From Eledone cirrhosa (Eukaryota), in contig CAXHJY010000290.1 in assembly GCA_964016885.1 (NCBI GenBank), positions 1 through 47,190 on the forward strand: DNA of 47,190 nucleotides, read 5' to 3'. The first letter of the stretch is position 1, and the number at the start of each line of letters is the position of its first letter. Made by a program: the position numbers and the translations under genes. The notes beneath the pieces were generated by a model. The model had not been told where the DNA came from. It did no database searches and was given only the letters and a program-made list of their open reading frames with translations. Positions 8,192-46,309 of this stretch are shown in pieces.

Positions 8192-9625
8192 TTAGCCATC
8201 GGGCTTTAACACTGGCTTAAAGTGTTTGAATGTTGCAAAGTTCTTGTGCATGCAGTTCGGGCAGTGTTCAGAGAGTTTGTTCAGTAGCGGGCCCTTGGCG
8301 AATAAAATTTCGTAGCTCTCTGAAATACAAAGGTCGCAGCCCTTGTGTCCTCCGTTGTAAGAGCGCGCTTTCTGGAGTATTTTCCAATTAATCGTGAAGG
8401 GGGTGGAGTTCCTTTTGAGGTCCCAAACGTAGGAGGCGAGTGTTGTTTGATTTGATTTATCCGGTCTTCTGAAGGAGTGGGTATGGGCATACCAACGGGT
8501 CTTAAAGTTGTTGGAGGTCATGCCGATGTAAGTTTTTTTACGATCCTCGGTGCCCGAGATGACATCGCATTTGTATACGATGTCATTTGTGAGGCATTTG
8601 TTTTCTAGTGGGCATGCTTCCTTATTTAGGCAATTACATAGAGCCCCAGTCCGGGGATTGGTTTCGGAGGTGGTTGGCTTATTTAGTTTAGAGTTGTGGT
8701 TGGCTATATTCCTAGCTAGGTTAGGTGTGGTGGAGTAAGACAGTCTTATAGTGTTCTTATTAAAGATGGTGTAGTACCTATGTTGTATGGGGAAGTGTAA
8801 TTTCAGTAAAGTGAAGAAAATCCTAGCTATCGGAGTAGATACCTCTCTATTGAAGGGAGGGTTGTACCAGCTAATCTGCCTATGTCTATTCCTCCTCTGC
8901 AATTTTGCGGTGGTTTCTAGGTAAGTTATCTTATCTTTAAATCCGCTACGGGCTAGGGCGTCATTGTAGTAGGAGGCAGATGCATTAAAAATATCTTTGT
9001 TGGCGGAGAGGCCAGATATTCTAATAGAGACGCTTTTTACTAGGTTATCAGTAATGTTTTGGGGGTGGTTTGAATTAACATTAATATATTTAAGGGACTC
9101 GTTAGGTTTGTGGTACGGGTAATAGAGGGAAGTATCTAGGTCGAGAGTGACATCTAAGAAGTTGGCCCTAGTCAAATTAGAATCTATAGTTATACTAAAT
9201 CCTAGATTAGAGAAGAAAGAGCTTAAGTTTTTCCGAAACCCATCGGTGGTTCTGGGGCTAACCTTATGCAGGGCGAAGAGGCCGTCGTCTCGGTATAAAC
9301 CTCCAGTTAGGCCGGTAAAGAGGTTCTTCAGGTTATGTAGGATGTACAGGCCCACAAGGTCGCTAATTTCAGCCGAGTCACTCGCCCCCATGCTAACGTC
9401 AAATGGGGTCTGAGATTTCTTGTTGATCCAGTAAGATCCATCGTGGTATAGAAAGGTCTTACGAGCGTGGAGGATAATAACTTGCTCGGCATCGGTAATG
9501 GTGGTAAAATTCCTGGCAAAGTTAATTGCGTCCTTCAAGAGGGGCTCCGAGATAGAGGCATAGTAGTTTTCTATGTCGAGTTGTAGGAAGCGAGTGTGGT
9601 GTTTATCGGGTAATTCTTGGAACCA
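8192..9625 (-). CDS. 5'-truncated Penelope-like element ORF: RT (domains 3-7, thumb) + GIY-YIG endonuclease; possibly Naiad-like
   Basis: LDIENYY, MGAS, YRDD, FLDVTL, YHKP..YI...[49 protein letters not shown]; the first ~55 aa of the listed ORF are Helitron/microsatellite read-through. Confidence 0.92.
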
Positions 9626-9629
9626 TATA

Positions 9630-9699
<70 letters not shown>

Positions 9700-10577
9700 C
9701 TAGCAGTAAAGCCCGGCGTTGCTCGGGGTCGCTCAGTAGCTGTGTTAAAGTTACAATGTTAAGTTTCTTTTTTGGCTTAAAGTCTGTCTGCACGACTGTC
9801 TGTCTGCACGCCTAACGAAATTTACAGATACATATATTTTAAATAAACTTATATAATTTTTGCTTTTTTTTACGAAATATTTGCTTGTTTTACGTAGTCT
9901 TTAAATAGACTTGTTTTCAAGTAAAAATATTGTTTTAAAAGGCTTTTAAATGGAAATGAAGCAAAACGGAAGCTTAGTGTTCGAACTGATGAATTTTGCA
10001 GGTCAAAATTTTGCTGGCTCGACAACTGTTCGTGTATTGTGTTAATGTCATTTTAAACGCTGAGAAAGCCAGCGTAATTTTTTTAATTTTTGCACGCAGA
10101 AAATGTAAACAGAACGTAAGACGCTCAATGTAAACAGAACAAAGGGAAATAACTCGTCACTTACGCTCAAAAATCGATACATTAGATTCGATTTCGTCAC
10201 ATAGGGTGGGTCAATTTGAAATATTTTTTTTGCGATGTCTTCGCTAGGGCTCAATGTACAAGTATAGCAATTTCGGTGCAATTCCGTCAGAGATTCTAAG
10301 AGGAGATGTGTGCCAAAAATCGATAGACAGACAGACAACCACAGCTTTATATATATAGAACAAAGGGAAATAACTCGTCACTTACGCTAAAAAATCGATA
10401 CATTAGATTCGATTTCGTCACATAGGGTGGGTCAATTTGAAATATTTTTTTTCCGATGTCTTCGCTAGGGCTCAATGTACAAGTATAGCAATTTCGGTGC
10501 AATTCCGTCAGAGATTCTAAGAGATGTGTGCCAAAAATCGATAGACAGACAGACAACCACAGCTTTATATATATAGA
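9700..10577 (-). mobile_element. Non-autonomous Helitron with duplicated 5' end
   Basis: Minus strand begins TC (TCTATATATATAAAGCTG), ends with hairpin CCCGAGCAACGCCGGG then CTAG, inserted between A and T; ~220 bp 5' segment tandemly repeated (10136-10359, 10357-10577). Confidence 0.85.
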
Positions 10578-41711: not shown

Positions 41712-42457
41712 TGGGAGTTTGTGCAGTGGGGTGATAGTGGAGGGTGGTGCTGGGTGATAGCTCGAATGTTTTTTTCCAGTTCTTTTGCCAGATTCATTAT
41801 GGCTAAAAAAGAGGAAGAAGTTTCCTGTTTAGAAGACTGTTGGTGACTGTGGTAGTGGTTATTTTTATGTAGGTTATGGTTTTTGTTTTTGCTTTTATTT
41901 TTAATTTTATTTTCATTTATCCGACGGGTCCCCGGGAGATGGGTAAAGGGACAATCCCGGTCTAAACACAATCTGTCTCGCAGGGAAAAACGGCAGATTT
42001 GTGGATTCCTTGTTTGAGTTATTGGTGGTTGTGTTGGTGTTAAATTAGAGTATGTATTATGGTGGTGGCTGTTTGTGGGGATAGATCGTTTTGTCCTAGG
42101 TAAATGGGTGAATTTGCAGCCACTATCCGTACATATTCTATAGCGTAGAGAGTAGCGGCAAATGATGGGGTTTCGAGTGGGTGGGTATGTGGGTGTGTGT
42201 GTTGTGAGAGGTGTAGATGATGGTTTGGGTAGGATTTGACGACCTTTGTGGACTATGGGAGGGAGAGTTCTTGTACTGGTATTAGAAGGTAAATTCCTTT
42301 GCATAGCAGTAGACAAAAATGTTGTTGTAGTAGTAGTAGGCAGAGATGTTGGCAGTGGTGATGATTGGACTGCTGGGCCAGAGAAAGGATGTGGCGTTTC
42401 ATGCTGTGAGACAGAGGCTACTGGGGGGTCAATAGTTTCATTTAGTAGATCGGCCAT
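41699..42457 (-). CDS. ORF1 protein (~252 aa) with two CCCH zinc fingers
   Basis: ATG at 42457 (MADLLNE); [19 protein letters not shown] and [19 protein letters not shown]; overlaps ORF2 start. Confidence 0.75.
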
Positions 42458-42575: not shown

Positions 42576-43953
<1,378 letters not shown>

Positions 43954-43956
<3 letters not shown>

Positions 43957-44816
43957 TATGAAGAGAGAAGAAACATTTAGATATAATTAGTAATAAAATA
44001 TATCATACCTAAACTGCTTCTAAATTTATCAAGAGGATACCTCATTTTACTAGTCTCAAGAACGCGTCTACACGACGTGAGAAAGAATCCCAAAAAGCGG
44101 AGGGGGAGATAGTCACGCGATATAACGGTCGAGAAACAGAGCTAAGCCTCTTATAACCCCGAAGAAAATACCACGGAGGTGGAGGGGGTATTTATATCGA
44201 GGCCGTAGAAGAGGTGGTGTAGGCGGCGAGAAGTATGAGTAATGGAAGCTTTCCAGCTGTCCTCACACTTCAAAGATTGCTCGACCAGAGGGAGTTATTA
44301 ACAATATATTTAGAAACACACAGATACATGCGGACACACACATATATACATGAATGCATCCGCACCCAACTGTGAGTTAAGGGTGCCAACTTCACCGATG
44401 TTGCTCAATGAATGACTGGAACAGACCTATCCAGTTGAACTGGACTGAACCAGTATCAGAGTTAAAAATGCATTATGAAGAGAGAAGAAACATTTAGATA
44501 TAATTAGTAATAAAATGTATCATACCTAAACTGCTTCTAAATTCCTCGACTACGTAGTTTCGTGGCATAAACAAAAACAATATATCATAAAGACATAGAG
44601 TACTTGCGAGGTCTGCCGACTTATCAAGAGGATACCTCATTTTACTAGTCTCAAGAACGCGTCTACACGACGTGAGAAAGAATCCCAAAAGGCGGAGGGG
44701 GAGAATAGTCACGCGATATAACGGTCGAGAAACAGAGCTAAGCCTCTTATAACCCCGAGGAAAATACTGGTTCAGTCTAGTTCAACTGGATAGGTCTGTT
44801 CCAGTCATTCATTGAG
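43954..44816 (-). mobile_element. Family I: non-coding tandem-repeat PLE-type / retrozyme-like element with inverted end segment
   Basis: Direct repeat 43954-44171 / 44471-44767; inverted repeat 44404-44456 / 44764-44816; hammerhead in the second repeat. Confidence 0.7.
44543..44632 (-). ncRNA. Type I hammerhead ribozyme with U3:A8 variant core
   Basis: TCCTC-TTGATAA-GTCGGCA..TGCCAC-GAAAC-TACGTA-GTC-GAGGA. Confidence 0.75.

Positions 44817-46309
<1,493 letters not shown>

Follow-up and report, generated by a model that had tools for sequence, protein, structure and literature searches.

The minus strand at positions 44543-44632 of the window, by which we mean the whole 47,190-nucleotide stretch of Eledone cirrhosa DNA analyzed here, carries a genuine hammerhead ribozyme motif for which self-cleavage is predicted. 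The motif belongs to an 863-bp insertion built from a 596-nt non-coding unit. We consider this unit to be probably a Penelope-like (retrozyme) element, likely non-autonomous, with a type I U3:A8 hammerhead whose self-cleavage is expected to be slow and to proceed mainly as a double hammerhead of two units. The genomic copy in the window is slightly decayed and retains one complete motif.

The hammerhead motif and its detection

Three helices surround the core and helix I is the open one, as in type I hammerheads (Table 1). The core differs from CUGANGA at positions 3 and 8 only, and the two replaced bases are Watson-Crick complementary, with the 3:8 pair present as U3-A8 rather than the canonical C3-G8. 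U4 G5 A6, A9, G12 A13 A14, A15.1-U16.1, H17 and G10.1-C11.1 are all present. No canonical loop I was evident by eye, and loop I is poorly defined in the Penelope-like element (PLE) hammerhead motifs of PMC4209133 too. A sequence-only reading of this DNA had proposed a hammerhead with a UUGAUAA core that keeps the 3:8 Watson-Crick pair, and both proposals were borne out, on the minus strand. The loop that it gave as a palindromic TACGTA is palindromic, but the palindrome is 10 nt long (44549-44558) and not 6 nt. The stem II loop, put at about 48 nt, is 46 nt and is predicted to be mostly paired, as a hairpin extending stem II.

A strict descriptor accepting any Watson-Crick 3:8 pair was run over both strands of the 15 islands of non-microsatellite sequence in the window, 18,226 bases in total. 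It gave one match in the real islands and none in 60 second-order Markov controls. A relaxed scan returned five candidates with core and stem II in the window, and stem I was found only in the motif at 44543-44632. A further hammerhead-like core at 37726-37753 (+) is canonical C3:G8 (CUGACGA, with a bulged U, a 6-bp stem II and GAAA); no stem I was found within 160 nt of it, and a PLE-like ORF fragment at 36977-37447 lies about 280 nt upstream of it.

Rfam gave no hammerhead at gathering score over the whole window, and its seven matches at E<=10 within 43950-44830 included no hammerhead family. Hence standard searches do miss this motif, as had been foreseen for CUGANGA-type searches, likely because of the long stem II insert together with the variant core. 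An Rfam match to mir-268 over the 3' hairpin (28.6 bits against a cut-off of 47) was dismissed as generic hairpin likeness. Motif pattern scans found five loci in metagenome contigs and eight in viral contigs, and none could be aligned to the element outside the 15-26-nt motif. An unrelated hammerhead family in metagenome contigs (L001, L003 and L004, around 624-704 on the minus strand) has the same helix III palindrome; the core of L003 is canonical, and those of L004 and L001 are decayed and non-compensated.

Table 1. Features of the hammerhead motif, of the insertion and of other elements in the window
Feature	Position	Strand	Basis or remark
Type I hammerhead ribozyme motif	44543..44632	-	Constrained fold and descriptor scan
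Stem I, 5 bp	44628-44632 / 44543-44547	-	
Core U3-U4-G5-A6-U7-A8-A9	44627-44621	-	U3 = 44627, A8 = 44622
Stem II, 6 bp, G10.1-C11.1, one bulged C	44614-44620 / 44562-44567	-	
Stem II region including 46-nt insert 44568-44613	44562..44620	-	Insert fold predicted
GAAA	44561-44558	-	
UACGUA	44556-44551	-	
GUC	44550-44548	-	
Helix III and GAAA	44549..44561	-	10-nt perfect palindrome 44549-44558
Predicted cleavage site after C17, between 44548 and 44547	44547..44548	-	Hammerhead consensus
Whole insertion, 863 bp, non-coding Penelope-type/retrozyme element (probable)	43954..44816	-	(TA)n tracts on both sides
One full 596-nt unit	44172..44767	-	Contig joints
Upstream partial tandem copy, 297 bp, pseudo-LTR-like	44471..44767	-	Intact hammerhead
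Downstream copy with 78-bp deletion	43954..44171	-	UUGAUAA kept at 44026-44032
53-bp 5' inversion	44764..44816	+	Reverse complement of 44404-44456, 1 mismatch
19-bp hairpin between cut site and element 3' end	44486..44538	-	
LINE-type RT ORF	38693-41224		RVT_1, E=1e-30
PLE-like fragment	8198-9580		Weak GIY-YIG, E=0.004

Architecture of the insertion

In the RNA sense, the insertion consists of the 53-bp inversion, the 297-bp partial copy, a single-copy stretch of 299 bp and a second copy that is 97-98% identical to the partial copy. The second copy lacks 78 bp, the equivalent of 44543-44620 from G10.1 through the stem I 3' strand. The gap stops 4-5 nt short of the cut site and shows 1 nt of microhomology, and the upstream copy is intact across the junction. 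The deleted repeat noted in the sequence-only reading near 44026-44037 does keep the core, reading CTCTTGATAA on the minus strand at 44026-44035. The locus amounts to 1.5 units with a single complete hammerhead motif. Splicing was dismissed as the origin of the gap, with GT..AG ends absent on either strand.

When the 596-nt unit was read as a circle, its longest ATG ORFs were 46 aa (+) and 48 aa (-), and a coding role was dismissed. The RT and GIY-YIG endonuclease ORF of an autonomous Penelope-like element is not present in the insertion, and no similarity to the PLE-like ORF regions within the window was found. Two sets of features suggest that the insertion belongs with non-autonomous PLEs: a partial tandem (pseudo-LTR) that contains the hammerhead and is adjoined by a 5' inversion, and a microsatellite or AT-rich target combined with a common 3' end. 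The non-coding, highly self-paired unit is in turn a feature of non-LTR retrozymes. Insertions of Penelope-like elements have been described as marked by partial tandems, by an inverted 5' piece alongside and by a microsatellite target (PMC8557442), and the architecture seen here is PLE-like.

The hairpin at 44486-44538 is a possible recognition site for the reverse transcriptase. The stretch at 44477-44481 (-) can pair with the 5' end of the 3' product (the stem I strand), closing the 3' hairpin domain; such pairing after cleavage might favor product release.

Other elements in the window

The window has AT-rich sequence in which (TA)n arrays predominate. A frame at 8195-9811 (-) contains a PLE-like RT with the weak GIY-YIG match and is broken by an in-frame (TA)n tract (9625-9699); its motifs make it a putative PLE. 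Pfam gave no match for two PLE-like fragments at 36421-37447. A perfect 134-bp inverted repeat (36302-36435 and 37845-37978) flanks a PLE-like fragment, with the same 5'-inversion anatomy as the 863-bp element and no sequence similarity to it. At 10136-10577, a two-copy tandem repeat (221 bp, copies 97% alike) adjoins (TA)n, and no hammerhead core was found in it. Two LINE-type endonuclease-RT elements, both near-complete and divided between adjacent frames, occupy 22876-25884 and 38693-41828 (-), and a stretch near 29076 repeats part of the latter.

State of the core across the repeat family

Among 24 listed sequencing runs, 20 contain part of the element, under 17 organism labels. None of those 20 is listed as RNA, a fact that carries no information about expression. 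Four of the 24 were compared with 44172-44816, namely X1, X5 and X11 as contigs and X22 as raw reads, using a variant table of other letters at >=4% in which interior differences are itemised and piece ends are filtered. X1 may be the window's own sample, and each of the three contig runs may be DNA or RNA.

X1 yielded 1,541 contigs, 504 of them at 99% identity or more and 345, 366 and 326 in the lower bands. This spread over lower identity bands indicates many diverged family copies. The summed depth of X1 in the bin 44612-44633 was 485,735, a figure that is not a copy number. Another letter reached at least 4% at 24 places, and ten of these letters are near-fixed against the window, indicating that the signal is dominated by other copies. 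No variant place fell in 44603-44767 or in the stems or core, 44627 and 44622 included, and the contigs of X5 and X11 that cover the core have no other letter itemised there at this threshold. Two un-itemised other letters are counted in each of three contig pieces, two from X5 and one from X11, and probably lie near the piece ends. With these letters as a caveat, U3:A8 is, judged from the contigs, the family-wide majority state and not private decay.

A joint going back 596 nt was present in two X1 contigs and in one X5 contig, the latter 621 nt long and closing on itself, and 13 loose ends of X1 behind 44767 run on into the sequence at 44172. The 596 joint could stem from a circle as well as from tandem or partially tandem DNA. 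Five X1 contigs break off at 44471 and pass into (TA)n, which shows that insertions share this 3' end, located 77 nt beyond the cut site. X1 variants at 44534 and 44536 exchange A-U and G-U, so that, as read by eye, pairing of the 3' hairpin is retained. X22 (1,938 Mb) is without the element; its five reads all fall on the CA-rich patch 44304-44369. No joint with the 78-nt skip is listed in any of the four runs, and the single skip listed, from 44566 to 44679, is off the cut site. X5 and X11 carry the element at low depth, which probably reflects trace host DNA or possibly a wider spread.

Predicted RNA folding

For the isolated 90-mer, the hammerhead-constrained fold is -19.1 kcal/mol and the MFE is -20.2 kcal/mol. 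The cost of the hammerhead fold over the MFE is 2.7 kcal/mol for 141 nt, 10.4 kcal/mol for 297 nt and 4.5 kcal/mol for the 596-nt circle, contexts in which stem I is mostly lost to other pairings. Stem I pair probabilities are 0.49-0.75 in the 90-mer and about 0 in the 297- and 596-nt contexts. Helix III has two Watson-Crick pairs beyond 15.1-16.1.

Two motifs together behave differently in the predictions. The palindrome at 44549-44558 scores 0.0 kcal/mol as a hairpin and -12.9 kcal/mol as a self-duplex, in which two copies form 10 bp. When two 90-mers are co-folded, the MFE structure is precisely the double hammerhead, at -54.1 kcal/mol compared with 2 x -20.2 (-40.4) kcal/mol. The 46-nt insert is predicted to form a 6x3 internal loop and an irregular hairpin that extend stem II, and the family letters at 44594 and 44602 both increase pairing in this hairpin (-3.4 kcal/mol). 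The fold of the 596-nt unit has z = -4.99, a value owed in part to a self-complementary CA/TG patch, and none of 100 shuffles was as stable.

Evidence on selection in the unit and in the core

With the ten near-fixed family letters, the circular fold gains 10.3 kcal/mol in stability. In 200 random sets with matching substitution types, the mean change was +3.8 kcal/mol, and one set equaled the effect of the family letters. Since the family letters stabilize the predicted fold beyond the random sets, this points to selection for RNA structure in the source copies.

The catalytic core did not give a comparable signal. The difference in conservation between core plus stems and the other unit positions was not significant (0/44 versus 24/516 vary, P=0.13), nor was that with the insert (0/44 versus 3/46, P=0.13). 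A pair inherited by all copies is a single ancestral event and is by itself no proof of selection. The argument of the sequence-only reading, that compensatory core changes suggest selection for activity, goes beyond what the data show. The compensation itself stands as far as pairing goes. General rescue of activity does not follow from it: a pairwise mutational scan of a type III hammerhead found rescue of the 3:8 pair for the G3:C8 swap only (PMC9901934).

Comparison with known hammerheads and retrozymes

The U3:A8 core swap is already published, and 44543-44632 is a further example of it. Perreault et al. reported natural U3-A8 in several hammerheads in 2011 (PMC3088659), a covariation that is rare in their survey and is here the majority state of one family. 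Cervera & de la Pena 2014 described about 1,300 U3-A8 motifs in Schistosoma mansoni, after the variant had been seen in a Cercyon PLE (PMC4209133), and the S. mansoni(3) row of their Fig. S3 has the identical UUGAUAA core. Palindromic helix III, bulged helix II and U3-A8 are all known in the PLE hammerheads of that paper.

The S. mansoni U3-A8 hammerheads resemble ours in being type I, in the short helix I, in the palindromic helix III and in the terminal-repeat location (PMC4209133). They differ in that their helix III is a minimal 4-nt palindrome, whereas ours is 10 nt; in the extra base between 9 and 10.1, in place of which ours has a bulge within helix II; in loops of 3-9 nt among the Fig. 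S3 rows considered, compared with the 46-nt hairpin insert; and in that our element has no ORF. The PLE hammerheads of Drosophila virilis, Aedes aegypti and Marsupenaeus japonicus share a small palindromic helix III, with the bulge inside helix II recurring in D. virilis and a palindrome of equal length in the Aedes rows. Unlike the present motif, these rows have C3:G8, a short loop II and mostly ORF-bearing PLEs (PMC4209133).

Non-LTR retrozymes have dimer-dependent type I motifs in non-coding tandem units that are expressed as circles (PMC7229834). The metazoan ones share with the present element the non-coding, self-paired unit and the type I hammerhead; 596 nt falls inside their 51-972 bp range, and PLE dependence has been proposed for them (PMC7229834; bioRxiv 10.64898/2026.07.22.740005). 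In contrast to their tandem arrays, the present locus has 1.5 units, a 5' inversion and one deleted motif, and the canonical loop I-loop II contact is not evident. Distinctive here is the combination of U3:A8, a 10-nt palindrome and a 46-nt insert in a non-coding unit with full PLE anatomy, which we describe without claiming that it is absent from print.

Proposed mechanism and alternative explanations

In the mechanism that we favor, the minus strand would be transcribed through more than one unit, and two motifs would pair via the 10-bp palindrome and exchange their stem I strands. Cutting after C17 would free 596-nt monomers, which might be circularised and in which, once folded, sequestration of stem I would switch the ribozyme off. 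An autonomous Penelope-like partner would supply the RT and the GIY-YIG endonuclease that nick (TA)n DNA, and copying would begin inside the unit, at a constant position about 77 nt downstream of the cut, and run for about 1.5 units, finishing in the short inversion. Internal RT initiation at AT-rich DNA was demonstrated in vitro for an anole PLE (PMC11167929), and PLE hammerheads cleave slowly (PMC4209133). U3:A8 would go back to a single origin, either in the founder or in the Penelope-like ancestor of that founder, and would have been inherited since.

The strongest competing view, which we consider unlikely although not negligible, is that the motif is a relic, catalytically dead or of negligible activity, whose U3:A8 hitch-hiked from an ancestral Penelope-like terminal repeat while the element spread via uncleaved RNA. 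U3:A8 is absent among the rescuing pairs of the type III scan (PMC9901934), eight of nine Xenopus retrozyme dimers were without cleavage in vitro (bioRxiv 10.64898/2026.07.22.740005), and the anole hammerhead, whose cleavage required protein, was dispensable for insertion in vitro (PMC11167929). The sequestered stem I in long contexts and the non-significant core conservation fit a relic as well. However, the remaining core bases and all three stems are intact with no X1 variant at >=4%, the structure of the whole unit looks selected, and Perreault et al. state, citing another source, that covarying 3:8 ribozymes are active in vitro (PMC3088659). With the published results on 3:8 rescue in conflict, and in view of those on retrozyme dimers and the anole PLE, the relic keeps its standing.

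Somewhat less likely still is a motif that is active as a monomer, through docking of the stem II hairpin on stem I or through a bound PLE protein, so that the dimer is unneeded. The hammerhead fold of the isolated 90-mer lies 1.1 kcal/mol above the MFE, helix III has its two additional pairs, and the anole hammerhead is protein-assisted (PMC11167929). Against this, helix III pairs with a probability of 0.02-0.09 whatever the monomer context, and its hairpin is not stable by itself, whereas short palindromic helices III are a known signature of dimers (PMC4209133, PMC7229834).

A more specific scenario, which we regard as doubtful, adds a history to the 78-bp gap. Here the U3:A8 hammerhead would be active, its stem II lengthened by the hairpin, and would process a 596-nt RNA copied by a Penelope RT from an internal start 77 nt past the cut, and the gap would be the fossil of an RT jump off a ribozyme-cleaved 5' end. 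The gap sits in the unit that the RT would copy first, in a single, post hoc case, and since no 78-nt skip was seen in any examined run, the idea is without a second example. If true, it would be genomic evidence for in vivo cutting by such hammerheads and would mean that PLE machinery mobilises retrozymes from RNA that the ribozyme has processed.

It is improbable that the insertion is the 5'-truncated end of an autonomous, protein-coding Penelope-like element. Its anatomy is of PLE type and most PLE insertions are 5'-truncated (PMC8557442; bioRxiv 10.64898/2026.07.22.740005), but the contigs of two runs go from 44767 back to 44172, a closed 596-nt unit in which no ORF exceeds 48 aa. Most improbable of all is that U3 and A8 arose by mutation at this locus alone, within a family that is otherwise C3:G8, the CTGATGA case that the sequence-only reading wanted checked: two un-itemised differences in one X5 and one X11 piece spanning the core would leave room for it, but both bases stand in both window copies and in the X1 contigs, the table itemises ten near-fixed letters elsewhere and none at 44622 or 44627, and its per-kind totals agree with its rows for all three contig runs.

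Significance

The overall significance is modest, as the core swap was already in the literature. Rfam and CUGANGA descriptors undercount elements of this kind. The anatomy of the insertion supports the proposed link between retrozymes and Penelope-like elements. The family, apparently high-copy and with U3:A8 as its majority state, offers a natural substrate for the question of whether variant-core PLE and retrozyme hammerheads cut, as dimers or with protein.
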